This document shows, piece after piece, positions 35,940 to 58,466 of a DNA stretch of 64,000 bases. A model generated the notes under the pieces. It ran no database searches. It was not told where the DNA came from and saw only the letters and a program-made list of their open reading frames with translations. Source of the DNA: an uncultured Chloroflexia bacterium (GTDB lineage: Bacteria; Chloroflexota; Limnocylindria; Limnocylindrales; CSP1-4); assembly GCA_963778025.1 (NCBI GenBank), contig CAVZTA010000003.1, forward strand, positions 225,544-289,543, given 5' to 3'. Both the position numbers and the translations under genes were made by a program. Numbering within the stretch: the first letter of the stretch is position 1; each line of letters begins with the position of its first letter.

Positions 35940-36284
35940 GTGCACGATCGCGACCACGCGGACTGGGAGCCGCACCTCGTGAACGCCTTGGACCCCGATG
36001 AGCCCATCGCGCTGCGCGCGCGGGCGCGCGACGCTGTGATCGCGGTCACCGACCGGCGGATGCTCGTCGCCACCGACACGCGACTCGCCATGGATGTCCC
36101 GTTCCCGCGGCTTCGGCGGATCCAGTTCGACATCGAGCGCGGGCGACCGGCGACCCTGGTCGTGGTCCCGGAGTTTTCAGACGCCGAGCCGCAAGTCCTC
36201 GCCATCCCCGCCGAGGAATACCGCGCGGTCGCGGACGCCCTCGTGGAGATCGGGCTGCGCTTGAACGACACGAGCGACACCTAG
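35940..36284 (+). CDS. hypothetical protein, bacterial PH-like fold suspected
   Basis: ORF 35940..36284 (GTG start): DAVIAVTDRRMLVATDTRLAMDVPFPRLRRIQFDIERGRPATLVVVP. High GC3. The domain call is tentative. Confidence 0.45.
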   Translation: MHDRDHADWEPHLVNALDPDEPIALRARARDAVIAVTDRRMLVATDTRLAMDVPFPRLRRIQFDIERGRPATLVVVPEFSDAEPQVLAIPAEEYRAVADALVEIGLRLNDTSDT

Positions 36285-36754
36285 CGCCCACGCGATCTCG
36301 ATCGTCCCGGGCGCCGAGGACGGTGGCCCTACGCGGAGGCTTGCAGTCGCGTCAAGCCGGAAGACGAAGGGCGCCCTCGCCGGCCAGGTCAGAGCATGGC
36401 CTTGATCGCCTCGGTGATATGCACGTATTCACTGCTGGTCGCGACGAAGAGCACGTCGGCTCGTGCGCCGACGCAACTGTTCATCGGGGACGCAGGGCTG
36501 AGTGCGAAACACACCGCGTGCTTGCCACCGAAGTCGCGCGCCTGGACGTGAAGGTCGCGGACGGCTCGGGCGGCCACCGCCAGATACGCTCCGACCAGGC
36601 GAGTCACGCGTTCACGACGCGCACGCGGACGGCGAGGACACGCAGGTCGGGGAATCTCGGGGTCGCATGGACGTGGCGCGTACGGCGCGGACTCACGGGG
36701 TCGCGCCTGTGCTCCGGTCGCACAGGCCGCGACGGTGGCGACCAGGACGATCCC

Positions 36755-36970
36755 GAACCCTCAGGTCTTCTGCTGATCGCAGCGGGGCAGTCGGATGGCG
36801 AGATCGCTGAAACCCTCTTCATCAGCAAGAAGACGGCCTCCGTTCACGTGGCCCACATCAAGAGCAAGCTCGGCGCCAGGAGCAGGGTCGAGATCGCCAC
36901 GCAGGCGTTGGCCCTTGGCTTCCTTCCGGGGCAGGCTCGGGAACCGCGCGGATCCGTCGATCGGCCGTGA
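36755..36970 (+). pseudogene. orphan LuxR-type HTH fragment (remnant of a NarL/LuxR-family regulator)
   Basis: Tail of ORF 36323..36970: LLLIAAGQSDGEIAETLFISKKTASVHVAHIKSKLGARSRVEIATQALALGF. The upstream 140 codons look non-coding, with no receiver or other domain. Confidence 0.5.
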
Positions 36971-37181
36971 CGCATCCGGATGACGACACCGGCTCGGTGA
37001 TGCCCAAGCTGACGCGGGTGCCGGACGCACGCTGACCACGGGCTGACCGTCGAGCGGTCGGTCGACGAACTCGCTCCCGGGGGTCGGCATGTGTTCGCCA
37101 ACAGGCCTCCTCGGCTATGGAGCGCGGATGCAATGCGCAGTCTCCGAGCGTCGCAGCTTCAACCCACTCGAGGAGCCACCC

Positions 37182-38081
37182 ATGCGCCTTCGCGTGCTCG
37201 CAGCAACCCTCATCGCCCTGGCGATGCTTGCATCCGCCGGCCCGGCCGCGGCGGTGACGAATGGGACGCCCGACGGGACGAACCACCCCTACGTCGGCTA
37301 CGCGGACAACCTGGTCTTCGCGTGCTCCGGGACCCTGCTGTCGCCGACCGTGATGCTGACGGCGGCGCATTGCTTCAGCGACAGCACCTCTGGCTTCGGC
37401 ACCAACACGACGACGGGAGCCCCGTTGGTTCGAGTCTCATTCGACCCGAACCTCATCAACACCCCCGCGGCGCAGCGGACCTGGTATGTCGGGACGTACT
37501 ACTTCGACCCGCAGTTCGCCATCGGAGGCGGCGGCGGGCTTCCGGGTTTCGACACCCACGACGTCGCGCTGGTCATCTTCGGTGAACCGGGCTGCACGAT
37601 CCCGACGAACACCGTCAGCACCTACGTGTGTGGCCAAGTGCCTCAGGCGGCGACGCTCGGTCAGTACGGGTCGCTGCCAAGTCTGGACCTCGTCAATTCG
37701 CTCGCGATGAATACCCGGGTGGACATCGTCGGTTACGGGGTCCAGGACTTCATCAACGGCGGCGGTCCGTGTGACCCGAACTGCAGGAAGAGCCCGGGTG
37801 CGTCGGCGACGAGATTCTTCGCGCCGACCCGCCTGGTGGCCAGCAACAACTCCATCAGCGACGAGTTCATCAAGCTCCACGCCAACAAGGGCGGCACGTG
37901 CTTCGGAGACTCCGGTGGACCCGACCTCGTCGGTGGCACGAATGTCGTGATCGGCGTCAACTCGTTCGTCGCGAACAGCGTCTGCTCGGGCAACACGTAC
38001 TCCTACCGCGTCGACACCGCCGAGGCGTTGACGTGGATCACGACCACGGTCGCGGCTCATGGAGCGTCGCTTACTAGGTAG
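37182..38081 (+). CDS. secreted trypsin-like (S1 family) serine protease
   Basis: ORF 37089..38081. GAGGAG 6 nt before ATG 37182. Signal MRLRVLAATLIALAMLASAGPAAA. Catalytic triad contexts LTAAHC, HDVALV, CFGDSGGP. Confidence 0.85.
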   Translation: MRLRVLAATLIALAMLASAGPAAAVTNGTPDGTNHPYVGYADNLVFACSGTLLSPTVMLTAAHCFSDSTSGFGTNTTTGAPLVRVSFDPNLINTPAAQRTWYVGTYYFDPQFAIGGGGGLPGFDTHDVALVIFGEPGCTIPTNTVSTYVCGQVPQAATLGQYGSLPSLDLVNSLAMNTRVDIVGYGVQDFINGGGPCDPNCRKSPGASATRFFAPTRLVASNNSISDEFIKLHANKGGTCFGDSGGPDLVGGTNVVIGVNSFVANSVCSGNTYSYRVDTAEALTWITTTVAAHGASLTR

Positions 38082-38146
38082 ATACCGCTCTGGCCGCTTC
38101 GACGGCTGGGATCGCATCGGGCAGCGGTCCGGATCCCGCGACTGAC

Positions 38147-38173
38147 GAGGCTCCCGGTCTCACCGGGAGCCTC
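38147..38173 (+). terminator. stem-loop downstream of the protease gene
   Basis: GAGGCTCCCGG tctca CCGGGAGCCTC: perfect 11-bp stem and 5-nt loop. No U-tract. Confidence 0.4.
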
Positions 38174-38275
38174 GATCATGTCGCCCTGCGGGTGTCGAGG
38201 ATCGACCGGACCGCACCGCGCCAACGGGTCCGGCGAGGGCCTGCTTCGCCAAGCAGATGGCTGACACTACGAGGC

Positions 38276-39604
38276 GTGACGCCCGAGACGCGATACGCCA
38301 AGAGTGGCGAGGTCCACATCGCGTACCAGGTCGTCGGCGACGGCCCCGTCGACCTCGTGTTCATCCCGGGCCTGTTCACGCATGTCGAGCACCAGTGGGA
38401 TGAGCCGACCTTCGCGCGGTTCCTCGGCCGCCTCGCTTCGTTCTCGCGGCTCATCGTCTTCGACGCACGCGGGGCCGGTCTCTCTGATCAGGCACACGAG
38501 CTACCGCCGATGGAAGACCAGATCGACGATCTGCTCGCCGTTCTGGATGCGATCGGGTCGTCGTCGGCGGCGATCTTCGGGATGTCGCAGGCAGGACCGA
38601 TGGCCATCCTCTTCGCGGCGTCGTATCCCGAGCGCACGCGCGCGATCGTGCTCTATGGGTCATACGCGTCACCCAGGCAGCGCGACGGATATCCCTGGGG
38701 GCGGAGTCCCGAATGGATGGACGCCTACGGTCGGCAGATCGACGATGCGTGGGGGACCGGCATCTTCCTGCCCCAAGTGGCGCCCTCGCGCGTCGGGGAC
38801 GAGCCGTTTCGGCGCTGGTGGGGCAAGTACGAACGGCTGTCGCATGGGCCCGGCAACGCGCTCGCCTACTTCCGCATGAACGCGCAGATCGACGTGCGGG
38901 CGATCCTGCCGACGATCCAGGTGCCGACCCTCGTGCTGCACCGGCAGGACGACATCTACCGCGACATCGGCCATGCCCGGTATCTCGCCGAGCACATCCC
39001 GGGCGCGAAGCTCGTCGAGCTCCAGGGCATCGATCATCTGCCGTACCTGGGCGATGCCGACTCGATCCTCGACGAGGTCGAGGAGTTCCTCACCGGGGTC
39101 CGGCCGCCGCCGGAGCGCGATCGTGTGCTGGCCACGGTGCTGTTCACGGACATCGTCGGGTCGACGGAGCACGCGAGCCAGCTCGGTGACCGCGCCTGGA
39201 AGCAGCTGCTCGAGCGGCACCACGCGCTGGTGCGCGCCGAGCTGAGTCGATACCGGGGCCGGGAGGTCGACACCGCGGGCGATGGGTTCCTCGCGACCTT
39301 CGACGGACCGGCGAGAGCCGTGCGTTGCGCGACCGCGATCGTGGACGCGATGCCGGCGATCGGCCTCGAGGTCCGCGCAGGGGTCCATACCGGCGAGGTC
39401 GAGCTGATGGGCACGAACGTCGGTGGGATCGCGGTCCATATCGGCGCCCGCGTGGCTGCTCTCGCTCGACCGAGCGAGGTGCTCGTCTCAGCGACGGTCG
39501 GCGCGCTCGTCGCTGGGTCCGGCATCGAGTTCGCCGACCGCGGCGAGGTGTCCCTGAAGGGTGTGCCGGGTCTTTGGCGCCTGTACTCGGTCACCGCGAC
39601 CTAG
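38276..39604 (+). CDS. alpha/beta-hydrolase domain + class III adenylate/guanylate cyclase
   Basis: ORF 38192..39604: YAKSGEVHIAYQVVGDGPVDLVFIPG, FGMSQAGPMAI. Cyclase ATVLFTDIVGSTEHA, DTAGDGFLATF, GVHTGEVE, GIAVHIGARVAALA. Start GTG 38276 or 38192. Confidence 0.85.
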   Translation: MTPETRYAKSGEVHIAYQVVGDGPVDLVFIPGLFTHVEHQWDEPTFARFLGRLASFSRLIVFDARGAGLSDQAHELPPMEDQIDDLLAVLDAIGSSSAAIFGMSQAGPMAILFAASYPERTRAIVLYGSYASPRQRDGYPWGRSPEWMDAYGRQIDDAWGTGIFLPQVAPSRVGDEPFRRWWGKYERLSHGPGNALAYFRMNAQIDVRAILPTIQVPTLVLHRQDDIYRDIGHARYLAEHIPGAKLVELQGIDHLPYLGDADSILDEVEEFLTGVRPPPERDRVLATVLFTDIVGSTEHASQLGDRAWKQLLERHHALVRAELSRYRGREVDTAGDGFLATFDGPARAVRCATAIVDAMPAIGLEVRAGVHTGEVELMGTNVGGIAVHIGARVAALARPSEVLVSATVGALVAGSGIEFADRGEVSLKGVPGLWRLYSVTAT

Positions 39605-39649
39605 GGAGTGTTCGTCACGATCGCCTTGAGGCGGCGCTCGAGGCGGTCG

Positions 39650-41101
39650 TCAGGTCGCCGACGGAGGGCCGCCGCGGCGGCGGATCGCGCGCTCGGCGAG
39701 GACCCGCACGGTCCCGCGGAAGATCAGGCCGTGGACCGGGTAGAGCACGTACCAGTAGGCAAGACCCGGGAGGCCCTTGGGCTCGAAGAAGGCCGTCTGG
39801 ACCAGGCGGCTGCCGCCCTCGGCCGGCGTCACGTCGTATTGGAGCCAGGCGCGCCCCGGCACCTTCATCTCCGCCCGCAGGCGCAGCAGGGTCGGCCGGT
39901 GGACCTCCTCGACGCGCCAGAAGTCCAGAGCGTCCCCGACCCGGAGGGTGCCGGGGTCGCGACGGCGGAGCCGCATGCCGACGCCACCGACGGCGCGATC
40001 GATGAGGCCGCGAACGCGCCACAGCACGTTCGCGTACGGCCAGCCGCCGCGGCCGCCCACGCGCTCGATCTCGGCGAACACGGCGTCGGGTGGGGCGGGC
40101 ACGGCTCGCTGCCGGCGCTCCACGATCATCCCCTCGGTGGACGTGAGGGACGAGAGGCTCTCCCGGTCGGGGGCGGCGTACGCGTCGAACCACGTCGACA
40201 CCAGGTCGTCCGGATCGGCGCGGTCCATGGCCCGCCGGAGCGCTTCGATGTAGGGCACCGGCGAAAGGCCGAATGCCCGCGCCGGCCCCGGATCGCGGAC
40301 GACCACCTCGTTGCGCAGACCCTCGATCAGCGGCCGGGCGATGCCAGCCGGCACGGGCGAGATCAGGTTCACCCAGTACGAGGAGAGCCGCGGGGTCAGC
40401 ACCGGGACGGGGATCATCAGGCGGCGAAGGCCGCGCAGGCGCGCGTACGTGCGCATCATGTCGCCGTACGACAGGACGTCCGGGCCGCCGATCTCGACGA
40501 CGCCGGTCGTGGCGGGGTGCTCGAGTGCGCCCATGAGGTAGTCGAGGACGTCGCGGATCCCGATCGGCTGGCACCGGGTGCCCACCCACCGGGGCGTGAT
40601 CATGATCGGCAGCCGCTCCGTCAGGTGGCGCAGGATCTCGAACGACGCGCTGCCGGACCCGATGATCACCGCCGCGCGGAACTCGGTGACCGGCACCCCG
40701 TGGGCGGCGAGCTCGGCGCCCGCCTCATGGCGGCTGGCCAGGTGGTGCGAGAGGTCCGCAGCGTCGTCGCCCAGGCCGCCGAGATAGACGATCCGGGCGA
40801 TCCCCGCCCGTGCCGCCGCCAGCGCGAAGTTGCGGGCTGCCTGCCGATCGCGCTCCGCGAAGCCTCGCTCGCCCGCGCCCATCGAGTGCGCCAGGTAGTA
40901 CGCGACCGCCACGCCGTCCAGGGCGGGCGCGAGGGTCGCGGGCTCCAGGAGGTCGGCGGCCACGACGCGTGCACCCGGGAACCGGTCGGCGAGCGGGCGG
41001 GCGTCGCGGCTCATGAGGACGAGGTCGTGGCCCATCGCCTCGAGCAGTGGGACGAGGCGACCGCCGATGTACCCGCTGGCGCCGACGATGAGGATCCGCA
41101 T
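39650..41101 (-). CDS. NAD(P)-binding atypical SDR (NmrA-like) fused to a DUF2867-like domain
   Basis: ORF 39650..41308(-), ATG 41101: MRILIVGASGYIGGRLVPLL. C-terminal GGWPYANVLWRVRGLIDRAVGGVGMRL, WRVEEV, AWLQYDV. Confidence 0.85.
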   Translation of the reverse strand: MRILIVGASGYIGGRLVPLLEAMGHDLVLMSRDARPLADRFPGARVVAADLLEPATLAPALDGVAVAYYLAHSMGAGERGFAERDRQAARNFALAAARAGIARIVYLGGLGDDAADLSHHLASRHEAGAELAAHGVPVTEFRAAVIIGSGSASFEILRHLTERLPIMITPRWVGTRCQPIGIRDVLDYLMGALEHPATTGVVEIGGPDVLSYGDMMRTYARLRGLRRLMIPVPVLTPRLSSYWVNLISPVPAGIARPLIEGLRNEVVVRDPGPARAFGLSPVPYIEALRRAMDRADPDDLVSTWFDAYAAPDRESLSSLTSTEGMIVERRQRAVPAPPDAVFAEIERVGGRGGWPYANVLWRVRGLIDRAVGGVGMRLRRRDPGTLRVGDALDFWRVEEVHRPTLLRLRAEMKVPGRAWLQYDVTPAEGGSRLVQTAFFEPKGLPGLAYWYVLYPVHGLIFRGTVRVLAERAIRRRGGPPSAT

Positions 41102-41225
41102 GGCACGAGTATGGGTGGCGGCGTCGCGGGGGCGCTCTGCCGGTGGGTGACGAATGCGGCGACAGCCTCGGGGATCGGTCAGTCGATCGGCAGATCCTCT
41201 ACGCGGACTTTCCCTGGATGGCTGA

Positions 41226-41438
41226 TCATGGGCGGTGGATGATGGTGTTCCCTGCGGTGAATACGTCCTCGATCCTGCAACCAAACGTCTGTGCGATAAG
41301 GAACGCAAGGGGCAGCGACGGGTCGAACCGCCCGCGTTCGATCGAGATGACCGTCTGGCGCGAGACGCCGAGCACGTGTGCGAGGTCGGCCTGAGTCCAT
41401 CCGCGACCGAGCCGTCGTTCGGCGAGGTCGTTCCTCAT
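41226..41438 (-). CDS. small XRE/Cro-type HTH regulator (70 aa)
   Basis: ORF 41226..41438(-): RLGRGWTQADLAHVLGVSRQTVISIERGRFDPSLPLAFLIAQTFGCRIEDVF. Confidence 0.8.
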   Translation of the reverse strand: MRNDLAERRLGRGWTQADLAHVLGVSRQTVISIERGRFDPSLPLAFLIAQTFGCRIEDVFTAGNTIIHRP

Positions 41439-41617
41439 CCCAGCGCACGGTGGCGGTTCACGAGGTAGCGCAGACCTGCGTCGACCACACTCAGGCCGAT
41501 CAACGCCAGCAACACTGGCAACGCGTCGACGTCGTTTCTGCCGAACATCAGTACAACGGTCACGACGAGCGTCGCGATGAGGACGTCGAGGAACGCTCCG
41601 GATGCCGCCTGCTTCAT
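41435..41617 (-). CDS. small membrane protein partnered with the HTH gene; N-terminus apparently truncated at the island junction
   Basis: ORF 41435..41617(-), 4-nt overlap with the HTH gene. The frame stays open upstream to 41734 (SALALTAAYPSVSLGVWIFVSNHTVTRDPLGEESVELSW) without any start codon, and is closed by the recombinase-fragment TAG at 41735-41737. Confidence 0.5.
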   Translation of the reverse strand: MKQAASGAFLDVLIATLVVTVVLMFGRNDVDALPVLLALIGLSVVDAGLRYLVNRHRALG

Positions 41618-41734
41618 CCAGGACAGCTCGACACTCTCCTCGCCGAGAGGGTCACGGGTGACCGTGTGGTTGGAAACGAAGATCCAGACGCCGAGAGAAA
41701 CGGAGGGATAGGCCGCGGTCAGGGCGAGGGCGGA

Positions 41735-42250
41735 CTACACGCCGATCGCGTCAGCCACTCGCGCCCAACCCATGTCCTCCTCCCCTCCAGGCGCCGCAGG
41801 CAGACCGTCGTCACGCCAAGGCTCGAGTCGATCGAGGAACGCGCTGACCGCTTCGATTGACTCGCCGGCATCACGGCCGAGCTTGGCGGCCGCGTGGCGG
41901 GTCACATGGACGCCCGAGGCGGCTAAGCCAGTGGCTCGCAGATAGCGCCGGAACCGCAAGTAGAGCGTGTCACTGGACAGACCTCCGCACGCGTACCCGC
42001 CTGCCAACGGCGCAACGGCTCGCGGCTCGTGCTCGCGACGCGCTCGGGCTGACGGGGTCAACCTCCTGAACTTCAGCGGCCGCGCTCCGTACGTATATCG
42101 TCCACGGCCGAGATCCATCAACCCCGGAGGGCGCCTGGACCGCGCCCAGTTCATGCTCGAAGGAGGGAGGCTTCGCGGGTGGTTTACGAGTGTTTGCGGG
42201 GCTCCGTTCGGGTCGCGTCGAGGTCGTCGACCGCGTGGTCCGATAGAGCT
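41735..42250 (-). pseudogene. decayed C-terminal fragment of a tyrosine recombinase (older copy)
   Basis: ORF 41735..42154(-): LSSDTLYLRFRRYLRATGLAASGVHVTRHAAAKLGRDAGESIEAVSAFLD, about three-quarters identical by eye in DNA to 44173-44400. The region after FLD is frame-shifted, and the homologous frame reads TTVCL where the intact copy has TTVYL. N-terminal half missing. Confidence 0.6.
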
Positions 42251-42413
42251 GAGGGCAGATCACACGCAGCGACCATTGCGCTGCCAAGACGATTGACGGC
42301 CCGCGGGTCCGCTTTGGTGACGCGCGCGACAGGAGCTGACGCTCGGCCAGACGGAACCGGCGCACCATAAGGGTCGGCGAAGGAACCGGACCCCCGGATC
42401 TGGAGGAACTGCG

Positions 42414-42707
42414 ATGAGCGACTCGCGTACGCCCTACGGCAACGGCAACTTCCCGATGCTCCAGGAAGGCGACACCCTGACCGCCGCGCAGGTGCGCTTG
42501 ATCGCGAGCGCGATCAGCCAAGCCGGCAGCCAGCGGACGCTCGCTCGCTCAAGCGACGCCCCCGCCTTTGCATGTGACGAGAGTTCTTGCGTGTGCGTCG
42601 GTGACGACGACTGCAACGACATGTTCACGGGCCAGAGCTGCGGCCCCGAGGCCGTCTGCCTCTCAGACGGAGCCGGCAGCGTCGTCTGCATCTGTATCCC
42701 CGCGTAG
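42414..42707 (+). CDS. 97-aa protein with Cys-free N-terminal half and 8-Cys C-terminal module
   Basis: GGAGGA RBS 9 nt before ATG 42414; GC3-rich frame. C-terminus AFACDESSCVCVGDDDCNDMFTGQSCGPEAVCLSDGAGSVVCICIPA (C-x4-C-x-C-x5-C-x8-C-x5-C-x9-C-x-C). Confidence 0.6.
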   Translation: MSDSRTPYGNGNFPMLQEGDTLTAAQVRLIASAISQAGSQRTLARSSDAPAFACDESSCVCVGDDDCNDMFTGQSCGPEAVCLSDGAGSVVCICIPA

Positions 42708-42779
42708 GGATCGCCGGTGCGGTCCCGGCCGCGCGCACACCATGACCTCTTCGCGGTCCACGCCGTGACTGATCGGCCG

Positions 42780-43941
42780 TCACGGTTCCCGACCGCTGGC
42801 TCCAAGCGCCCGCAAGCCTTCGTCCATCGACTCGAGAGCACGTTTGCCCGCGTGCTGCTCCGCCGCAACGTCGGACTCAAGGAACTCCCGGACGCTCGCG
42901 AGCGCGCTTTCGCCTTCGTCCGTGAAGGCCTTCAGGGCATCGTCGAACTCGCGCAGCGTCTTCTCATGCTCCTGGTCGAGTCGGAATTCCTCCGCCGAGG
43001 CGCGATCCTCCTCTGACGCCGCGACCCTTTGTCGATCCAGTTCCAACCGCAGCTCGCTGTCCTTAGCGCCATCTTCGAGAACGCTGAATGCCGCGCTCAT
43101 CTCGGAACAAATATCTGGGGCTTGGTCGAGCACCCCCTTTGCGGTCGCCATGATGAACATCGCTCTGAACGCATCGCCATAGGCAACGCCTGGCATCGGA
43201 TCGATGAGGCGGACAACCCTCTCATGTACATTCACGACGCCGTACCGAAGTCTTCTCGCTTCATCGTGGTCGAGAAATGGCGTCAGGTCCGCCGCTAGCC
43301 TAACCAAGCGGTCGGCCGCGATCTTCCAGTTCTCGGGCGCGCTCGCGAAGCCGTAGAGCCGCCACTCGCTGCGATTCCGAACCATGTTCACCAAGGCTAG
43401 GGACGGTCGGGCCGAACATCGCGTCCACGTGGCCCCGAAGGCTCAACGCCACCGCCTTGATTCGGCGCTCGCGTTCGTCAGACCAGGGCAGGCCAATCGC
43501 CTCGGCAACTTCGCTCGACTCGGGCCCCGGTCCCACGAGGATCTCGACGGAGTTCGCCGCGAGGAGTTTGAGTTGGCGCGTCATCTGCTGTAGCGCGTGG
43601 AACGCAAGGCGCTCGTTCCGGCTACGCCATGCTCGTCGTTGCCACCGCTCGAGAGTGTTGGCGCCGATAACGACCGCGCCGATGCCGGCGGCGCCGGCCG
43701 CGAGGAGGTCGCGGACCACATCAAGCCACCAGACGTCGCCGGCGACCTTGGTCAACGCACCTGCGACGAGTAGCGCCAGCCAGACGAGAGCCGCGGCGAT
43801 GTAGAGGGATCGCGGGACTCGCGGCGGCTCGTCACTCGCGCCAGTACATCTTCTCTCTGCATGGTGTCGAGCCGCGTCGATGTCTCCCGCGCCGGCCAAT
43901 GGCCCGGTCGGTAGAGGGACGTTTCCGTGGCAGTGCGCCAC
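42780..43941 (-). CDS. hypothetical 2-TM N-terminal / long helical C-terminal protein (either one gene with a frame change near 43395-43410 or two genes overlapping by 95 nt)
   Basis: ORF 43300..43941(-): SLYIAAALVWLALLVAGAL, LLAAGAAGIGAVVIGA, then a helical region. ORF 42780..43394(-) continues with NRSEWRLYGFASAPENWKIAADRLVRLA. The GC3 signal passes from the first frame to the second exactly at the junction. Confidence 0.5.
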
Positions 43942-44172
43942 GCGTTATCCAATCCGACAGGATGAGGATAGGCTGCGTGCGTCTGTTTGATTGGCACCAT
44001 CCGCACGTCGGACGTTCTTCGAAACTGGGGTACCCAACCTCCGCGCTGGTGGCGTCTCCGTATGTTGTCCCTCCGGTCACCACGGCCCGCGCGGCAGCCT
44101 AGGAAGTTCCTGAGTCTCATGCCTAGGGGTTCGCGGAGCCGTTCGGCCCTGTTGCAATGTGGCCCTTACAGC

Positions 44173-45103
44173 TCAAATCCCGAGCGACTCTGCTACGCGC
44201 GCCCAGCTGCCGTCACGTTCACCCTCCAACCGCCTTAGGTAGACAGTCGTGACGGCGAGGCTCGAGTGATCGAGGAACGCGCTGACCGCCTCGACGGAGT
44301 CGCCCGCGTCACGGCGCAGCTTGGCCGCGGTGTGGCGGGTGATGTGCACGCCCGATACTCGGAGGCCGGCTGAGCGCGCAAGTAACGGCGGAACCGCAGG
44401 TAGAAGGTGTGGCTCGATAGGCCGACATCTCGCGTACCCGCCTGCCACAGTGACTCACTTGGCTCCATGGCCGCGAGATCCTTGCCCAGGTCGCCGAAGA
44501 CTCGCGACGATCGCCTCGAATGCCGGTCGCGGCAGCTCGCGACGTCCACGCTTGCCGCCCTTGCCGCGGTACGAGTATTGGGCCACGTCCCCGTCGACCG
44601 TGAGGTCCTTCGCCTGGAGGCCCATGACCTCGGCGCGGCGCCGGCCGGTCAGGAGAAGCGTCAGGACGATCGCGCGGTCGCGGCGCCCAGCGACGGTGTG
44701 AGGGACGACCGCGAGGAGGCGCTTCACCTCCTCCGCGGAGTAGCCGCGCGCCGGAGCGACCACGGTGCGCGGCCGCTCGACGGCGTCGCACGGGTTCGAC
44801 GCGACGAGACCCATCCGGATGAGGAAGCGGTAGAAGGAGCTGACGCAGGCGATCCGCGCGCCGATCGTGGCGGCCGCCGGCGGCCGTCCTGACGCGCCGA
44901 TTCCATGTGCGTACGCCAGCACGTCCGCCGGCTTGATGGTGTCAGGCGTCCGGCCGGCAAAGAATGGCCAGAGCATGCGGGAGTAGCTCTCGACCGTCCG
45001 GTCGAGAGCCCGATCGGTTGCCCTTCTCGACGAGGAACGCGTACAGCGCCTGCTCCCATTTGGAGCCATCGACTGGTCGGGCGAGCGACTGGTGCTCGGA
45101 CAT
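44173..45103 (-). CDS. tyrosine recombinase / phage-type integrase (full length but spread over four frame segments)
   Basis: GGAGG RBS before ATG 45103 (MSEHQSLARPVDGSKWEQALYAFLVEKGN). Then RTVESYSRMLWPFF..LLLTGRRRAEV (ORF 44455..45129), GLSSHTFYLRFRRYLRA (ORF 44235..44549), GVHITRHTAAKL..LAVTTVYLRRL (ORF 44173..44448). Frame changes near 45015, 44500 and 44375. Confidence 0.8.
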
Positions 45104-45557
45104 GTATCCACCTCCATCGGGTGGCACATGACTCACTCGCCGCGCCCAGGAAAGTAACCACTCTGGCCCGTTGTGGCAGCCTCGAGACCAGCGGGCCGCG
45201 GTGGCGGGCGCGGAGCGAGGCCACGCGGGGCTGATCCAAGGCGACCGGTCGCTGTGCCTGCACATCGGCCACCACCCGCGCCATGCCTCAGAGGGTCGGT
45301 TCGTTCGGTCCCGCGTCTCGCCCGGTGTCGCCGTAACCGAGCTTCGACTGGCTCTCTGCTTATCGACGGCCGAAGAAGTGCGGACGTCCACTACATGACA
45401 GTGGCGAAAGCAGGACCGCCGAGGACTCGAGACGAAGCTGGTCCACCAGCGCGACTAACGCGTCGAGGTTCAGTTAGACGCCAGCCGACGCGGGCGTCGT
45501 AGTGTGGCCGCCTCGCTGAACTGCCGCTGTCGTGGGAGATCAGGAGAGCTCTGGCGG

Positions 45558-45571
45558 CGTGGCTAGCCACG
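45558..45571. promoter_or_regulatory. 14-bp perfect palindrome upstream of the SGNH gene (operator candidate)
   Basis: CGTGGCTAGCCACG, 85 nt upstream of ATG 45656, inside a 550-nt non-coding stretch. An AGAGCTCT palindrome lies at 45544-45551. Confidence 0.3.
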
Positions 45572-45655
45572 TCGCTAAGCCCTAGCAGTCAACGGGCTTC
45601 GCGGGGGAAGTGCGGAGTCGCCCGTCCCTCGGTAACTCGGTGAAGGAGGCATGTG

Positions 45656-47596
45656 ATGGCGACTCCGCGTATTCGCCCTCCGCGACCCGACGCGGTCGCC
45701 ACGAGCGCGACAGCCCTGGGGACGCCAGGAGCGGAGTTCCGAGTCGCGGCCTTCGGCGACTCCCTCATGTGGGGTCAGGGGCTGCGGCGCGCCGACCAAT
45801 TCTCGTGGCTCATCAAGGAACAGCTAGGGATCGCTGCCAAGAAGACACCGGTGCTGGTGGCGGACCGCTCGCGATCAGGAGCGCAGATCGACGAACGCGC
45901 TGTCCAGCGCCAAGAGTTCGTCAGCCGCTTCCCGGAAGTCTTCAAGAGTCGGACTGAACGAACACGCTTCATCGACGGGACCCTGCCAGGCGCCCAGATC
46001 CCTGCCGAGCGACTCTACGGCGAGATACCGGCGACATTCCCGACGGTTCGCGCCCAAGTCGCTGCGGTATCTGACGAGGTCGGAAAGACCGTTCGTGTCG
46101 CGCTGGTAAGTGGTGGGGCGAATGACATCGGCTTCGATGAAGTCATCAATCCGACCGAATTCCCCGGTGCGTTCATCGAGCGATGGGATGGCAGGATCAA
46201 GGAGATCGCCTACGAGCTCGTCCTTGACTTGATCGCCCGCGTTCGGCGCAAGTGCCCCAAGGCCGTCATCCTCCAGTTCGGCTACTACATGCCGCTCTCG
46301 TACCGATCGAGCCGATCGGACATCGAGGCATTCTTCAAGCACGAGCTCGACAACGATGTCGGTTGGTGGCTCAACAAGCACGTTCCAGGAGTCCTGGACC
46401 TGCTCCCGGGCGTTGACAGCGTGAGCGTTGAGCAGATGGTCCTCGAGGCCCGCATCCGTGGCGTCTGGGCTGCCGGTCGTGCCCAGTACTGGATGCGCAA
46501 GGCCGTCGCCGACGCCAACGCCGACGACGCCGCCCGGGGGCCAGGTGTCGTCTACGTGCCCGCGCCCTTCACCGACGACATGGCTGCCTTCGGCGCACAG
46601 CCGATGCTCCATGAGGACTATTCGCACCCGACGACCGACCCGGCCCGCCAGCTCCGCGAGGCCCGATGTCCTCGAGCCGCCCACTTGGGTGCGCTGCGCG
46701 ACTTGTGGCCGAAGCTGATCCTCGGGACGCCATCGGCCGCGACCGTGAAGGCCCTCCGCAGCTCCCTGACAGGACCCCAACCCCTGCTCGATGGCCTCGC
46801 CGGCGACTTGTCCGGCCGTGAGCGTTTGCGCCTCATCCCGATCATCACAGCGGAGATCCGGCGCATCCAGCGCGCGCTGATCGCGTCGTTCCTGCATCCC
46901 AACACCGAGGGCGCGCGACGCTATGCGGCTGAGGCGGTCCGGCGCTACAACGTGCACACCCAGCGGATTGCCGCGATCGGAACGGTCGTAAAGCCCACAT
47001 CCCCGGCTCAGTTGCCGGGTGGATCAGAGACGCTCGAGGAACGGCTTGAGCGTTTCGGGCTGCGGGGGACTGGCCCCTTGTCGGCGGACGTTGGCCACGA
47101 GGAAGTGGACTCGCTCGCGGTCACGGTCGTGACTGAGCGCGCCTCGGAGCGGTTGTTGGCGCCCGACATGACGCTCGTGGTCACCAACCGATTGGTCGGG
47201 GGCGCCGCGGCGGGGCGCGTGGTGACCCGCGAGTTCTTGCTCAACTTCCCGTATCGCATCACGAACGTACTGGGCGCGCAGCTGGTGCGGAAGTTCTATC
47301 CACACTTCGAACCGGCGGTGACCAACTTCTTCACACTCAACACGTCTGGTGAGCTTCGCCTAGAGCAGATCACCGGGTTCGCCATCGCCATGGGACCCGA
47401 TCCCGTCGGCGGCAAGTTCGGGAACGTGTGGCGTCCTCGTCGCGTCCAGCTTGAGATCAATGGGCGCGTCGTTCACGATCAGACATTTCGAAACCGCGAG
47501 CTCCGCCCTGGCCAGTCGTTGACGCTGGACTATCCGCCTCCCGCTCGGCGGCCGGGTGGAACCGGGACGGTCGCGACCGCGCGAGCCGGAGGCTGA
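45656..47596 (+). CDS. SGNH/GDSL-family hydrolase (lipase/esterase) with C-terminal PLAT/LH2-like beta-sandwich; no signal peptide
   Basis: ORF 45653..47596. GAAGGAGG RBS. Block I FGDSLMWGQG, block III LVSGGANDIG, block V SFLHPNTEGARRYA. C-terminal roughly 170 aa beta-rich (SLAVTVVTERASE..MTLVVTN..GNVWRPRRVQLEINGRVV). Confidence 0.75.
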   Translation: MATPRIRPPRPDAVATSATALGTPGAEFRVAAFGDSLMWGQGLRRADQFSWLIKEQLGIAAKKTPVLVADRSRSGAQIDERAVQRQEFVSRFPEVFKSRTERTRFIDGTLPGAQIPAERLYGEIPATFPTVRAQVAAVSDEVGKTVRVALVSGGANDIGFDEVINPTEFPGAFIERWDGRIKEIAYELVLDLIARVRRKCPKAVILQFGYYMPLSYRSSRSDIEAFFKHELDNDVGWWLNKHVPGVLDLLPGVDSVSVEQMVLEARIRGVWAAGRAQYWMRKAVADANADDAARGPGVVYVPAPFTDDMAAFGAQPMLHEDYSHPTTDPARQLREARCPRAAHLGALRDLWPKLILGTPSAATVKALRSSLTGPQPLLDGLAGDLSGRERLRLIPIITAEIRRIQRALIASFLHPNTEGARRYAAEAVRRYNVHTQRIAAIGTVVKPTSPAQLPGGSETLEERLERFGLRGTGPLSADVGHEEVDSLAVTVVTERASERLLAPDMTLVVTNRLVGGAAAGRVVTREFLLNFPYRITNVLGAQLVRKFYPHFEPAVTNFFTLNTSGELRLEQITGFAIAMGPDPVGGKFGNVWRPRRVQLEINGRVVHDQTFRNRELRPGQSLTLDYPPPARRPGGTGTVATARAGG

Positions 47597-47646
47597 CAAA
47601 CCGCGACAAAGGCTTTCTTGACAACGCCGGCTGGGGAGCGCAGGAC

Positions 47647-48108
47647 ATGGAGCCATTCAGCACCGGGATCGCATTGATGGCGCTATTCGTTTCCGCAATT
47701 TCGCTCATTCTGTCGTGGCGGTCGGAAGTGCAACGGCGAAAGGCCGAAGATTTGCGAGATCTACTCGGCGAGAAGGAGACAGTCGGTTTCGCCGCACTCA
47801 GGCTGTTGAGGGAAGGCCTGCCGACGAGTGACAAGAGGGCCCGAGCTCTCGTCATAGATGCAGTGATGCAAGCGTGCGTCCTTGAGGGCTCTGACCGATC
47901 GCGGGCGCTGCTGTTTCGCGTTCTGGAGATAAATTGCGCCGTATACGGGAAGGAGCTGACGGCCACCCTCGACGGGATTGAACACGCCTATACATCGATG
48001 GCCGCCTACCGATTTGACGCTAAGGAGCTGGATCTCGCGAACGGTCGGCTTCGACTTGGGGCCGCGCGAAAGATCCTTGATGCCTGCGGCGCTGCGTCCC
48101 GTACCTAG
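47647..48108 (+). CDS. hypothetical N-terminally TM-anchored helical protein (153 aa)
   Basis: GGGGAG RBS 8 nt before ATG 47647. MEPFSTGIALMALFVSAISLILSW TM helix, then a helical region. The lowest-GC gene of the window by eye. Confidence 0.55.
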   Translation: MEPFSTGIALMALFVSAISLILSWRSEVQRRKAEDLRDLLGEKETVGFAALRLLREGLPTSDKRARALVIDAVMQACVLEGSDRSRALLFRVLEINCAVYGKELTATLDGIEHAYTSMAAYRFDAKELDLANGRLRLGAARKILDACGAASRT

Positions 48109-48336
48109 CAGTGGTCAGTCTGGCGGCTTCACCACTATCACCAGTTCGTGTTCAGCCGCGCGGCTGATGGCGCGCGTGTCGTTCCCAGGCTGGCATTCGC
48201 GTTCGTAGACTGCCGCGACGCGCCCGGACGGCGAGGCGACCGCTAAGTAGCTCCACAGGACCGGAGATCGTGTCGGCCCACGTGACGCCAGCCGCCGAGG
48301 CGAACGGTCTGGCGCTCGCGCTTCCCGAGGTGGTTA

Positions 48337-48414
48337 TGGCGCGCCCGGAGGGATTTCGAACCCCCGACCCCGTGGTCCGAAGCCACGTGCTCTGGTCCGC
48401 TGAGCTACGGGCGC
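48337..48414 (-). tRNA. tRNA-Arg (anticodon UCG), CCA encoded, 8-nt T-loop as assembled
   Basis: Reverse complement folds as GCGCCCG TA GCTC AGCGGACCA GAGC A CGTGG CTTCGGA CCACG GGGTC GGGGG TTCGAAAT CCCTC CGGGCGC G CCA. The anticodon loop CTTCGGA gives UCG. Confidence 0.9.
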
Positions 48415-48499
48415 GCGGACCGCGGATGATACAGGCTCGTTCCGCAGCACCCGGTCGGAACCATGGCCAACGGCGCGCTCGATGCGCGAGACTGTCGCC

Positions 48500-50146
48500 A
48501 TGGCCATCGATCCGCGGGCCGGGAAGCCCGCTGACCCGTCGATGCTGGTCGACGTCGACCGGCTGATCGCCGCCTACTACGACGCGAAGCCCGATCCCTC
48601 GATCCCGGAACAGCGCGTGGCATTCGGGACGAGCGGGCATCGTGGGTCGTCACTGAAGACCTCGTTCAACGAGGGCCACATCCTCGCCGCGAGTGCGGCC
48701 GTCGCGCGATATCGGCGGAGCCACGGGATCGACGGGCCCTTGTTCATGGCCCTGGACACCCACGCCCTGTCGATGCCGGCCTATCGGACGGCGCTCGAGG
48801 TCCTCGCGGCGGCCGGGGTCGACGTCCTGCTCCAGCCGGACGACGAGGTGGCACCGACCCCGGCGCTGAGCCACGCGATCCTGACCTATAACCGCGACCG
48901 GTCGACCGGTCTCGCCGACGGCATCGTCGTGACCCCGTCGCACAACCCGCCCGAGGACGGTGGCTTCAAGTACAACCCGCCGACGGGCGGCCCGGCCGAC
49001 ACCGACATCACCGGCTGGATCCAGGACGAGGCGAATGAACTTCTCAAGTCCGGACTTGCAGAAGTCAAGCGAACACGATGGGAGCAGGCTCGGCCGAGTG
49101 CCGGGAGCTACGACTTCCGTGCGAACTACGTCAACGACCTCGGCTCGGTCATCGACCTCGAGGCCATCGCGTCGTCCGGCCTGCGTATCGGCGTGGATCC
49201 CATGGGCGGGGCGTCGGTCGACTACTGGCCGCTCATCGCCGAGCGCTACCGGCTCGACCTGACGGTCACCAACTCGACGGTCGACCCGCAGTTCGGCTTC
49301 ATGACGGTCGACTGGGACGGCCGCATCCGGATGGACCCGTCATCGCCGTCCGCGATGGCACGGCTCGTGGAGCTGCGCGACCGGTTCGATGTCGCGTTCG
49401 GCAACGACACGGACGCTGACCGGCACGGCATCGTCACCCCGTCGGCCGGCCTGATGAACCCGAACCACTTCCTCGCGGTGTGCATCGCCTACCTGTTCGG
49501 CGGGGCGCGCGGGTGGAGCACCGAGGTGGCGGTCGGCAAGACGCTCGTCTCGTCCGCGATGATCGACCGCGTGACGGCTGACCTCGGGCGGCGGCTGCTC
49601 GAGGTGCCAGTCGGGTTCAAGTGGTTCGTCGCCGGGTTGATCGACGGCTCGGTCGGGTTCGGCGGCGAGGAGAGCGCCGGCGCGAGCTTCCTGCGGCGCG
49701 ACGGGACGGTCTGGACGACCGACAAGGACGGACTCATCCCGGCGCTCCTTGCCGCGGAGATGACGGCGCGAACCGGCGGTGACCCCGGCGTCACGTACGA
49801 CGAGCTGACGAAGCGCTTCGGCGCGCCCGCCTACAGGCGCGTGGACGCGCCCGCGTCGCCGGCCGAGAAGGCGATCCTCGCGAAGCTCTCGCCCGACGCC
49901 GTTCGGGCGGAATCGCTCGCCGGCGACCCGATCACCGCGATCCTCACCACGGCGCCAGGCAACGGCGCGCCCATCGGCGGCCTCAAGGTCCAGACCGGTC
50001 AGGGCTGGTTCGCCGCCCGGCCGTCGGGCACGGAGAACGTCTACAAGGTCTACGCGGAGAGCTTTCGCGGCGAGGAGCATCTCGCCCGGCTCATCGAGGA
50101 GGCCCAGGGTGTCGTGAGCGCGGCACTCGGCGCGGCAGTGGCGTAG
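48500..50146 (+). CDS. pgm: phosphoglucomutase, alpha-D-glucose phosphate-specific
   Basis: ORF 48482..50146, ATG 48500: [77 protein letters not shown]. Confidence 0.95.
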
Positions 50147-50150
50147 CGAG

Positions 50151-51355
50151 GTGGAGGCGCTGCTGCTCACGAACGAGTACCCGCCGAACGTCTACGGCGG
50201 GGCCGGCGTCCACGTCGAGTACCTCGCGCGCGAGCTCGCGAAGCTCATCGAGGTCGACGTGCGCTCGTTCGGCGAGCAGGACGAGAAGTCGGGGTCGCTG
50301 CGCGTTCGGGGCTACGGCGTGCCGCTCGACCTCTCGACGACGGCCGACAACCTGAAGCCGGTGTTCGGCGCGTTCGGGCGCGACCTCGCGTGGGTCGCCG
50401 ACCCCGTCACCGCCGACCTCGTGCACGTGCACACGTGGTACGCGCATCTGGGCGGGATCCTCGCGAAGCTGGCGTACGGGATCCGCTCGTGCTCACCGTG
50501 CACTCGCTCGAGCCGCTGCGGCCGTGGAAGCGCGAGCAGCTCGGCGGCGGGTACGACGCATCGGCGTGGGTCGAGCGGACGGCGATCGAGCTGGCCGACG
50601 CGGTCATCGCGGTGTCCAAGGAGACGCGCGAGGACGTGCTGCGGCTGTTCTCGGTCGACGAGGCCAAGGTCCACGTGATCCACAACGGCATCGATACCGA
50701 GGAGTACCGACCGCAGACGGCGACCGACGCGCTCGAGCGGTTCGGGGTCGGGCTCGATCGGCCGTACGCGTTGTTCGTGGGCCGGATCACGCGCCAGAAG
50801 GGGATCATCCACCTGGTCCGGGCGATCCGGCATCTGCCGACCGAGACCGCCGTGGTGCTGGTGGCCGGCGCGCCGGACACCAAGGAGATCGCGGCCGAGA
50901 TGGCGGCGGCGGTCGAGGAGGCGCGGACGACCCACCCGCACATCACGTGGATCGCGGAGATGGTCGACAAGCCGTCGATGCGGCAGCTCTATTCGCACGC
51001 GGCGGTGTTCGTGTGCCCGTCGGTGTACGAGCCGTTCGGGATCATCAACCTCGAGGCGATGGCGTGCGAGACGGCGGTCGTGGCCAGCGCGGTCGGCGGT
51101 ATCCCGGAGGTCGTCGTGCCCGGCGAGACGGGGCTGCTCGTGCCGTTCGAGGCGGCGGGTGGGACGTCGTTCGAGCCGAGCGATCCGGATCGGTTCGAGC
51201 GCGACCTGGCGGCCGCGATCGAGGAGCTGATGGACGACCCGGCGCGCCGCGAGGCGATGGGTCGCGCGGGTCGCCAGCGGGCGGTCGAGCACTTCGGCTG
51301 GGATGCGATCGCGCGTCGGACGGTCGACCTGTACCGGACGCTCGTCCCGGGTTGA
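50151..51355 (+). CDS. glgM: GT4 alpha-glucan synthase of the actinobacterial GlgM/GlgA type (1-nt deletion-like frame change near 50481-50485)
   Basis: ORF 50151..50678: LLLTNEYPPNVYGGAGVHVEYLA..VHVHTWYAHLGGILAKLAYGI. It continues in ORF 50390..51355: LVLTVHSLEPLRPWKREQLGGGY..FVGRITRQKG..VCPSVYEPFGIINLEAMA..VGGIPEVV. Confidence 0.85.
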
Positions 51356-51438
51356 CCCCGCGCCGGGTGGTAGGCGAGCGATGCGGGGCGCCGGCACCAC
51401 CCCGGGTGGTGCGCCCGCGCGCGCGCCGCGTGCGATCG

Positions 51439-52863
51439 CTAGTGGCGGGCCATCCAGCGGGCGAGGCTCGGGCCTGACGGCGGCTTCTGCGAGCGGTCCG
51501 CCGCGGCGTCGATCCGGCCGAGGGCCCATTGCGCGTAGCGAACACCGATCCAGCGGAACGGCTCGGGCTCCCACGAGCGCGAGCGATGGCCGACCAGCGG
51601 CAAGTCCGTCCGTTCCGACTGCTGGTCCGTCAGCAGCTCGGCCAGCGTCCGCCCAGCGAGGTTCGCCGTCGATACGCCGTGGCCGATGTACCCGCGCGCC
51701 GACGCGACACCGGACGCACGGTCGAACGTGATCGACGGGTGCCAGTCCCGCGGCATCCCCAGCGGCCCGCCCCAGGCATGGGTGAAGCGCACATCGCGGA
51801 GTGTCGGGAACCAGGCACGCACGAAGCCGCGCAGCATCTCGTGGGTCGGGGCGTGACGGTCGTACGCGTCGCGGATCGGCGACCCGAAGCGGTACGGCGC
51901 ACCGCGCCCGCCGAACAGGATCCGACCGTCCTCGGTCCGCGACAGGTAATCGACCGACAGCCGCGTCGACGCCAGCGTCTCGCGCTCCGTCCAGCCGATC
52001 TCCTGCCACTGGGCGTCCGACAACGGCTCGGTCAGGACGATCAGCGAGTACACCGGGATGAGCTGCCGATGCAGTCGCGGGAAGCGCGTGAGATAGGCCT
52101 CGCCCGCCAGCACGATCGCCGAGGCGCGCACATCGCCGCGGTTCGTCCGCAACACGGCCCGCCCGCCGGTCGCGGGTGAGGACGGCGACCAGTCGACCAC
52201 CGGCGTTCCTTCGACGATCCGGCCGCCAAGCCGCTCGACCAGCCGTGCCAGCCCGCGTGCCAGCCGCCCGGGATGGATGACCGACGAGTCCGGCGTGTAG
52301 ATGCCGCGCACGACGCCGGCGACGCGCACCCGCTCGGAGACCTCCGGCCCGCTCAGCAGCTGGTAGCGCTCGCCGAAGCCGTACCGGACGTACTCCTCGT
52401 AGCTCTCCTCGATCGCCGGCACCTGGTGCGCTCCGCGGGCGACGACCAGCGCGCCGCCGCGATGCCAGCCCGAGTCGAGCCCTTCCTCGCGCGACACCCG
52501 TCCGACCTCGTCGACCGCGGCGTAGGTCGCCGCCTGCGTCCGAGCCGCGGCCTCCCGGCCGTGGAGTCTCGCGAGCCGATCCATCGAGATGTTGAGGTCG
52601 GGCGCGCACCACGCCCCGTTCCGCCCGGACGCCCCGAACCCGGCGGTCTCGGCCTCGACGACCAGCACCCGCAGCGACGGGTCGTGGCGGAGCAGGTAGT
52701 ACGCGGTCCACAGCCCGGTGTAGCCCGCTCCGAGGATCGCGATGTCGACGTCGACCGATCCATCGAGCGGCGGGCGCGGCGTCAGGTCGTCGCCGGAGGT
52801 CTCGAGCCAGAACGAGACCTCGCTCGGCTTCAGCGTCGACGGCTGGACATCCACGACGGGCAC
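51439..52863 (-). CDS. FAD-dependent oxidoreductase (DAO family)
   Basis: ORF 51439..53283(-): VDIAILGAGYTGLWTAYYLL, ETAGFGASGRNGAW. Start uncertain (GTG 52863 or 52854, or ATG 53001). Confidence 0.8.
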   Translation of the reverse strand: MPVVDVQPSTLKPSEVSFWLETSGDDLTPRPPLDGSVDVDIAILGAGYTGLWTAYYLLRHDPSLRVLVVEAETAGFGASGRNGAWCAPDLNISMDRLARLHGREAAARTQAATYAAVDEVGRVSREEGLDSGWHRGGALVVARGAHQVPAIEESYEEYVRYGFGERYQLLSGPEVSERVRVAGVVRGIYTPDSSVIHPGRLARGLARLVERLGGRIVEGTPVVDWSPSSPATGGRAVLRTNRGDVRASAIVLAGEAYLTRFPRLHRQLIPVYSLIVLTEPLSDAQWQEIGWTERETLASTRLSVDYLSRTEDGRILFGGRGAPYRFGSPIRDAYDRHAPTHEMLRGFVRAWFPTLRDVRFTHAWGGPLGMPRDWHPSITFDRASGVASARGYIGHGVSTANLAGRTLAELLTDQQSERTDLPLVGHRSRSWEPEPFRWIGVRYAQWALGRIDAAADRSQKPPSGPSLARWMARH

Positions 52864-52932
52864 GCTAGCCGGGATCCGACCGTCCGTGTGGGCTGGTTGC
52901 GAGAAGCAGCGGACGACGGCACACTCCCCGCC

Positions 52933-58458: not shown

Positions 58459-58466
58459 CGCGTCCG

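Follow-up and report, generated by a model that had tools for sequence, protein, structure and literature searches.

The 64,000-nucleotide stretch of DNA analysed here (the window), which derives from an uncultured Chloroflexota bacterium, carries a strain-specific, lower-GC island at positions 41727 to ~48299, adjoining the 3' end of a tRNA-Arg(TCG) gene; its limits were set by BLAST, with a refinement of the right edge. The tRNA gene (48337-48414, minus strand) is the only tRNA that ARAGORN finds in the window, and likewise the only RNA element found there by Rfam. Since it lies on the minus strand, its 3' end faces lower coordinates and thus points into the island, as an earlier note on this DNA, made from the letters alone, had stated. 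Outward from the tRNA, the plus strand carries the stub of a large serine recombinase (LSR) gene, an open reading frame (ORF) for a 153-residue ORFan (p153) and the gene of a 647-residue SGNH protein. Beyond a 550-bp spacer these are followed by the tyrosine recombinase (YR) sequence intB (minus), two ORFans of 213 and 201 residues (both minus), a gene for a 97-residue Cys-rich protein (plus), the second YR sequence intA (minus) and a truncated gene for a transmembrane (TM) protein. None of the site-specific recombinases in the island is functional, neither the two YR sequences nor the LSR stub.

The island differs from its surroundings in composition. The GC content is 0.63-0.69 over 41-48 kb, whereas the flanks show 0.70-0.75, and the segment 41727-48262 as a whole has a GC content of 0.659 compared with 0.720 for the remaining window. 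This value lies below that of every same-size window outside the island (444 of 444; mean 0.720, sd 0.013), and the tetranucleotide distance of the island (0.027) exceeds the maximum found elsewhere (0.017). The GC content at third codon positions (GC3) is 0.67-0.86 for the island genes and 0.89-0.93 for the flank genes, the frame-specific GC3 signal being visibly weaker in the island. The lower GC and weaker GC3 bias that the earlier note had described from about 41.2 kb to the tRNA are therefore borne out by windowed GC, GC3 and tetranucleotide statistics.

The only usable close relative is L088, a 1.58-Mb metagenome contig located via the PGM protein encoded in the flank, of which it carries a 99% identical homologue; named matches, from Chloroflexi and Ca. 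Limnocylindrales metagenome-assembled genomes (MAGs), place the lineage in Chloroflexota. Positions 4313-5828 of L088 correspond to window 39634-41149 (95% identity), positions 8614-9191 to window 41149-41726 (92% nucleotide identity) and positions 9697-21579, which include the tRNA gene, to window 48263-60091 (97.8% identity). Between the latter two segments, 505 bp of L088 (9192-9696) stand opposite window 41727-48262 without any match. Because L088 shares both flanks yet has different DNA between them, the island is strain-specific, which supports the proposal of a horizontally acquired, strain-variable island at tRNA-Arg. By BLAST, the island is bounded at 41726/41727 on the left and at 48262/48263 on the right, and the right edge could be refined to ~48299/48300, where the identity between window and L088 climbs from 65% to 92%. 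No repeat is shared by the two island junctions. A separate insertion of 2.8 kb in L088 (5829-8613), located at window 41149 and lacking a counterpart in the window, makes the interval between DUF2867 and the tRNA a multi-site variable region. This insertion encodes a 392-residue STAND-type NTPase with nSTAND1, NB-ARC and NACHT matches, and a 157-residue ORFan.

The left junction lies within a gene. The low-GC segment shared with L088 (41149-41726, minus strand; GC3 0.81) carries the 3' part (41435-41726) of a gene of ~145 codons for a protein with four TM helices, which is cut by the island junction such that the first ~45 codons are gone and the last ~97 codons are left without a start. In L088 this gene is present over its full span, apart from a 1-nt indel that was read across. 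The junction is positioned 8 bp past the stop codon of intA. A junction at ~41735 had been suspected from a TM-rich frame without a start codon (41618-41734), and both the end of the L088 similarity at 41726/41727 and the truncation of the gene confirm it.

At the opposite end of the island, the last ~26 codons of an LSR gene remain at 48258-48336 (plus strand), as recognised by tblastn and nucleotide alignment, directly abutting the tRNA. The encoded peptide is 70.6% identical over 34 residues to residues 470-503 of the 517-residue LSR of L142 (tblastn, E 3.8e-7), and the nucleotide identity of the stub to L108, L142, L099 and L172 amounts to 70-77%. L088 bears an LSR stub at the same place, which is longer than that of the window. 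Over 48258-48299 the identity between the two stubs is only 65%, not higher than that of either stub to the elements from peat, while from 48300 onward it is 92-99%, indicating that the two strains retain the ends of different element alleles. The LSR remnant abutting the tRNA 3' end shows that tRNA-Arg(TCG) was a real integration site, used, probably more than once, by one family of elements that carry both a YR and an LSR (the YR-LSR family). In the 505 bp that replace the island in L088, a 3' fragment resembling a different tRNA (GGAGGTTCAAATCCTCTCGCCCCGACCA) is located at ~9594-9660 on the minus strand and adjoins the LSR stub there; it receives no call by ARAGORN or Rfam, is without counterpart in the window, and resembles a partial-tRNA att relic left by a further element.

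The architecture of this family emerged from the relatives of intB, for which the reconstructed intB protein served as query. At least 461 relatives were found in metagenome contigs, with 60-76% amino acid identity over residues 12-308, and all five ORFs that were inspected are intact; two further relatives occur in IMG/VR contigs. In all 47 loci, the 1 kb around the YR is free of tRNAs, but in nine loci a tRNA (Arg-CCG, Glu or Asn) is located 3-9 kb downstream of the YR on the opposite strand, so that the YR reads towards the tRNA. Among the 22 loci with at least 7 kb of downstream sequence, 11 have an LSR downstream of the YR on the same strand, and in none is it found upstream. In L142, L099 and L108 the 517-residue LSR ORF extends into tRNA-Arg(CCG), overlapping its 3' half in antisense. 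The LSRs show a Resolvase N-terminal domain, to which the homologue in L173 adds Recombinase and Zn-ribbon domains. Prim-Pol/D5 primases lie between YR and LSR in some loci, and the IMG/VR contigs L172 and L173 have Prim-Pol/D5 together with a serine recombinase downstream of the YR. The canonical order is thus a ~100-bp leader, the YR, variable genes, sometimes with a Prim-Pol/D5 primase, and the LSR, all reading towards the tRNA. Since homology extends from ~100 bp before the YR to the tRNA, the elements can be sized at 5-7 kb; no direct repeats were found at their ends. The loci L099, L108, L142, L143 and L172 belong to this family, and other members adjoin tRNA-Glu or tRNA-Asn. Compared with this layout, the LSR stub and the tRNA of the window are in canonical position, whereas both YR pseudogenes lie on the other strand and Prim-Pol is absent.

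Both YR sequences were correctly recognised in the earlier note as homologous and as lying on the minus strand; both read away from the tRNA. The sequence intB (44173-45103), which had been called full length, indeed spans the whole gene and retains the motifs with the catalytic R, HxxR and Y (LLLTGRRRAEV, of which TGRRRAE is the core, HITRHTAAK and VTTVYL), but is a pseudogene in which the reading frame switches at ~45001, 44487 and 44375 relative to intact relatives. It matches PHROG_1 integrase (E 3.6e-21) and Xer-type NCBIfam models, and a fragment of it reaches 26.4 bits against PF00589 (gathering score 27.1), so that catalytic residues and profile both identify a tyrosine recombinase. 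Sequencing error as a source of the frameshifts was ruled out: the sites are not homopolymeric and other genes of the window are intact, with ORFs of up to 1246 residues, which argues that the lesions are real. The sequence intA is a 3' fragment comprising the last 82 codons (41738-41986), with 57% identity in tblastn to residues 239-320 of intact relatives and to these only. Codons 1-238 are gone, the frame is scrambled, and the motif TTVCL has a Cys where the catalytic Tyr would be. The earlier description of a truncated, frame-scrambled homologue with TTVCL holds in these respects but not in extent, since it had been placed at 41735-42250 and no integrase-like sequence is detectable at 41987-42250. 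Neither copy is an uninterrupted ORF. The two sequences share ~77% nucleotide identity over ~227 bp, a value that intA also shows against the YR gene of the 8.5-kb contig L084; the three genes are mutually 77-80% identical, their homology ending at the stop codon. As diverged paralogues, each equally distant from the YR gene of L084, intA and intB do not result from a local duplication, and their paralogy fits a putative origin in separate elements.

The repeats of the tRNA 3' half that had been expected as attachment (att) sites were found neither in the island nor at its junctions. Pattern search, blastn-short and local alignment gave no copy matching at least 23 of 26 nt in the island, and the best match there (15 of 16 nt at 42228-42243) is at chance level, as equal scores occur outside the island. 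The same applies to 41690-41740, 44100-44172, the sequences after either YR stop codon and the junctions, where tRNA-derived repeats reach chance level only, and a scan of the island for T-arm-like partial tRNAs was negative as well. The tRNA gene itself has a T-loop of 8 nt (UUCGAAAU) in the window and scores 60.3 bits in Rfam, while that of L088 has the canonical 7-nt loop (UUCGAAU) and scores 65.9 bits; the additional nucleotide could reflect either genuine damage close to the recombination core or an assembly error of 1 nt.

With respect to the marks of a tRNA-associated integrative island, the locus shows adjacency to the tRNA 3' end, with the LSR stub in contact at 48336/48337, as well as deviant composition and absence from L088, and lacks attL/attR direct repeats containing the 3' part of the tRNA. 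We consider it likely that window 41727-~48299, within a high-GC Chloroflexota chromosome, is a decayed and immobile mosaic, the remnant of small integrative elements that would have used the 3' end of tRNA-Arg(TCG) as attachment site. This reading builds on the observed composition, strain specificity, pseudogene lesions and LSR stub and on the family architecture in relatives; the order of events, the recombinase at work in integration and the expression of the surviving cargo are inferred. The SGNH gene, the 153-residue gene, the LSR stub and the tRNA would retain the layout of the tRNA-proximal element, whose LSR would have been deleted down to 26 codons. Because this plus-strand run matches the canonical layout, the SGNH and 153-residue genes are most likely cargo of that element. 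By contrast, intB, intA, the two ORFans and the Cys-rich module would stem from one further element of this family or from two, reduced by deletion and rearranged by inversion. At least one inversion is required, since the YR relics are opposite to the canonical layout. The distal deletion would also have taken the 5' end of the chromosomal 4-TM gene. A tandem of two canonical elements would need one deletion and one inversion of 41727-~45200 to arrive at the arrangement seen today.

Several observations weigh against this reading of an element remnant. Att-type direct repeats are absent both in the window and at the left ends of related elements, so that the ends of the elements are defined by the limits of homology only. 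Beyond the stub, no LSR sequence survives in the island, and no Prim-Pol sequence does. The YR pseudogenes run opposite to the family layout and thus need an inversion that is itself unobserved. Their nearest YR relative, in L084 (80% nucleotide identity), sits in a different and larger gene array without an LSR, and the YR copies may therefore stem from another type of element than the LSR stub. Finally, a comparison with related genomes for an empty site, which the earlier note had proposed, found no truly empty tRNA-Arg site: a search with PGM in GTDB genomes was unproductive (best match 72% identical, without synteny and without tRNA), and in a relative whose PGM is 90% identical the upstream region contains no tRNA.

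The cargo had been called entirely uncharacterised, which holds for most of it, as the other genes are without an assigned family, but not for the 647-residue protein (45653-47596, plus strand), to which an SGNH hydrolase domain, a helical domain and a C-terminal PLAT domain can be assigned from PF13472, conservation, an AlphaFold2 (AF2) model and Foldseek. The PF13472 match reaches 30.8 bits and thus remains below the gathering score of 32.9. However, blocks I, II, III and V of SGNH/GDSL enzymes, with Ser, Gly, Asn and His, are all present: among 39 homologues, the GDS motif with S37 is conserved in at least 90%, and G76, N157 and H415 are invariant. The AF2 model (pLDDT 88.6) separates into the three parts, of which the SGNH part matches the Streptomyces scabies esterase 1esc (E 3.5e-6), the lipase 5mal and the phospholipase A1 (PLA1) 4hyq. 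The PLAT part forms a C-terminal beta-sandwich with model strands at 484-624 (pLDDT >90), as expected for PLAT/LH2 domains, and matches alpha-toxin 1kho as well as 4nre, 3v98 and 6u7m, with lipoxygenase and lipoprotein lipase (LPL) PLAT domains; by sequence, no Pfam PLAT match was obtained. The model suggests a lipase/esterase-like cargo enzyme. With Streptomyces SGNH esterases and lipases (1ESC, 5MAL, 4HYQ) the protein has in common the SGNH fold and the conserved Ser/Gly/Asn/His blocks, and with PLAT lipid enzymes (Clostridium perfringens alpha-toxin 1KHO, lipoxygenases, lipoprotein lipase) the C-terminal PLAT-like beta-sandwich. Its order of an SGNH domain with long helical inserts, a helical domain and PLAT was not seen in any solved structure, and it differs from these enzymes in its Pfam score below gathering, the rarity of its family and the lack of a visible signal peptide. 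Only 74 homologues exist among 5.8 billion proteins, the next best being 53% identical, and they are scattered over Rhizobium, Mesorhizobium and metagenomes.

The neighbours of the 647-residue homologues are unconserved in four other loci. In two of these four, large signalling proteins lie beside the homologue, namely a 1094-residue AAA_16+TPR protein in L081/L082 and several guanylate-cyclase/TPR proteins in Rhizobium (L174). In the window, the gene is followed after 51 bp by p153 (47647-48108, plus strand), a singleton cluster with one N-terminal TM helix, without family match in Pfam, NCBIfam, PHROGs, PADLOC or PDB and not homologous to the genes downstream of the SGNH homologues in the four other loci. 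Among the remaining ORFans, the 201-residue protein (42780-43385, minus strand) is soluble, acidic and helical, forms a singleton cluster and has a coding-like GC1/2/3 of 0.70/0.44/0.73, with no family in the same five collections. For the 213-residue protein (43300-43941, minus strand), a hydrophobicity scan predicts two TM helices ahead of a helical tail. The protein has no homologue in 5.8 billion proteins; its sole match is a non-significant one to the PADLOC 2TM-effector (E 0.0099, no domain passing). All three ORFs (201, 213 and 153 residues) look coding, and sequence searches of PDB with the 201- and 153-residue ORFs and two family profiles returned nothing significant. A sub-threshold Rfam match to the mycobacterial small RNA Ms_IGR-8 within the 213-residue ORF (43787-43852, minus strand; 28.5 bits against a gathering score of 44, E 0.005) is probably due to chance. 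That the cargo consists of ORFans or sporadically distributed genes supports a horizontally acquired island.

The Cys-rich gene (42414-42707, plus strand, 97 codons, preceded by a GGAGG ribosome-binding site) is part of a ~520-bp module (42243-42758) that recurs with 95-97.6% nucleotide identity in five metagenome contigs, in at least four different left and at least four different right contexts. The module is thus ~96-98% identical across contexts, whereas the adjacent YR gene is only 80% identical. In L084, the Cys-rich gene is followed by ~2 kb of different genes and the YR gene with 80% identity to intB; given this same local order, the pairing is not unique to the window. Upstream of the gene, a 54-55-bp indel polymorphism is observed at 42279-42333: L085 and L086 have the segment in common with the window, whereas L083 and L084 lack it. 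The protein falls into a 90%-identity cluster of seven members, and as a query it finds 90 representative proteins at E<=1e-3. Most of these alignments cover its Cys-rich C-terminal ~45 residues, a domain that often forms the C-terminal part of proteins carrying signal peptides. Pfam, PDB and fold comparison gave no match for the protein (model pLDDT 65, nothing in Foldseek below E 0.6). An integron cassette was dismissed, as 42150-42900 contains no attC cores (RYYYAAC or GTTRRRY), and so was a miniature inverted-repeat transposable element (MITE), as inverted repeats are at chance level and unconserved in the other copies, none of them forming conserved terminal inverted repeats.

How the island arose can be told in other ways. 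The earlier note envisaged two YR elements that integrated successively at the tRNA-Arg att site, each ending just past its int gene, with the older intA pushed outward and decayed. Such a model accounts for two diverged YR paralogues in the same orientation, for homology among intA, intB and the L084 gene that stops at the stop codon, for an intA stop codon 8 bp from the chromosomal junction and for a tRNA that was a real integration site, and tycheposons provide a documented case of repeated integration that leaves remnants in decay (bioRxiv 10.1101/2020.12.28.424599). It is nevertheless unlikely, since repeats derived from the tRNA are missing at 41690-41740, at 44100-44172 and elsewhere, the direction of both YR genes, away from the tRNA, is contrary to the geometry of the nine loci, and relatives carry the element body downstream of the YR and not upstream. 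Furthermore, the tRNA-proximal 3.2 kb with the SGNH gene and p153, between tRNA and intB, are free of YR, and intB itself is dead. The difference between window and L088 is a replacement and not a clean insertion, and the strain-specific DNA starts ~37 bp past the tRNA and not within it. What remains of the model is the kind of feature and the diverged YR paralogues; its geometry, att repeats and intact intB do not, and with both YR pseudogenes opposite to the element layout a simple tandem array is unsupported. A swap by homologous recombination, in which the variable segment between conserved flanks was taken from another strain and the integrase relics came as passengers of an old island allele, is a possible alternative to which we give less than even weight. 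A replacement relative to L088 with sharp identity steps within homologous sequence (from 65% to 92% at ~48300, and on the left 92% against 95-98%), the further 2.8-kb indel of L088 at 41149 and the contrast between the ~96-98% identical Cys-rich module in unrelated contexts and the 80% identical YR gene next to it would all be expected from it. It explains the transfer from strain to strain, however, and not the origin of the island, is compatible with the element-remnant explanation, and draws on the comparison with one close relative. A chimeric join in a metagenome-assembled contig that imitates an island is extremely improbable: the source appears to be a MAG-type contig, but both flanks are collinear with the independent 1.58-Mb contig L088, the junctions lie within a gene on the left and within an element stub on the right, each with graded similarity, and L084 repeats parts of the island in the same succession (Cys-rich gene, then int).

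A different question is whether the cargo forms a working conflict or fitness module, for which the earlier note had considered the island the best place to look, and for which PADLOC, Pfam, NCBIfam and PHROGs gave no evidence. The SGNH-PLAT lipase and the 153-residue TM protein might form a pair for toxin/immunity or abortive infection, or the Cys-rich peptide might be a bacteriocin, given that the SGNH catalytic residues are kept, that PLAT domains are used by membrane-attacking toxins, that the ORFs are intact although the recombinases are dead, that a STAND or cyclase-TPR gene lies beside the homologue in two of four other loci and that the Cys-rich domain is found in proteins with signal peptides. 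We regard this as improbable. None of the five cargo proteins matches a defence system in PADLOC-DB 2.0, genes for modification or transport are absent from the vicinity, neither the 647- nor the 97-residue protein shows a signal peptide in its sequence, and the gene downstream of the lipase is unconserved in the four other loci, whose unrelated downstream genes speak against a toxin/immunity pair of lipase and p153. Rather speculatively, the cargo may be kept by selection: the 97-residue module would then be a self-contained unit spreading between variable regions of related Chloroflexota, with a new family of secreted, disulfide-rich peptides (motif F-x-C-x4-C-x-C-x-G-D-x-D-C-N-D-M-F...C-x-C), or the SGNH-helical-PLAT enzyme a new effector attacking membrane lipids, and the YR-LSR elements would constitute an undescribed class of dual-recombinase, tRNA-targeting mini-elements in soil bacteria. 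The decayed mosaic of tRNA-targeting elements, as favoured here, is a real but ordinary feature, a genomic island of a well-understood kind.

Three observations concern the origin and surroundings of the island. A phage or plasmid origin was rejected, as megablast and tblastn searches against phage and plasmid collections returned nothing close. A second, milder low-GC stretch at window 35000-39000 (0.66-0.69) encodes a helix-turn-helix (HTH) protein, a trypsin-like protease with an unusually low GC content at first codon positions (GC1 0.57) and a fusion of alpha/beta-hydrolase and adenylate cyclase, and may be another acquired segment. Beside PGM, a glycosyltransferase gene at 50390-51355 matches PF20706 (GT4-conflict) with 71 bits in addition to other GT4 models; as it is kept in all relatives examined, it is a core gene.

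P4-type islands and the integrative and conjugative elements of actinomycetes (AICEs) such as pSAM2 are located at tRNA 3' ends, encode a tyrosine integrase, deviate in composition and are absent from close relatives. The window resembles them in location, composition, presence of an integrase gene and absence from a close relative, but has neither flanking att repeats nor replication or transfer genes, its integrases are pseudogenes, and the remnant at the tRNA is an LSR and not a YR. LSRs of the phiC31/Bxb1 and ccr types usually interrupt protein genes, and long att repeats are not expected at their sites. In line with LSR elements, an LSR of ~517 residues with a Resolvase N-terminal domain adjoins the attachment site in relatives and long att repeats are absent; unlike them, the LSR ORF runs antisense into a tRNA that stays complete, only 26 codons are left in the window, and LSR catalysis is putative. 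The closest match in process is found in tycheposon islands (Hackl et al.). Tycheposons of Prochlorococcus are small elements at tRNA 3' ends with a YR (in a minority an LSR), primase/helicase modules and variable cargo, and their repeated integration at one tRNA pushes older copies outward, leaving fragmented integrases and remnants behind (bioRxiv 10.1101/2020.12.28.424599). Here, by contrast, the host belongs to Chloroflexota, the intact relatives combine a YR at one end with an LSR at the other, and no partial tRNAs survive in the window.

Although no new mechanism is revealed, the locus documents how islands are built at a tRNA in a soil lineage of Chloroflexota that is uncultured and has been little studied, by a tycheposon-like process in which one tRNA is reused, recombinases decay and few cargo genes are retained. 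It provides exact island boundaries and corrected gene models, with two pseudogenes and one serine-recombinase stub, and flags two uncharacterised families, the SGNH-PLAT enzyme and the Cys-rich 45-residue domain.

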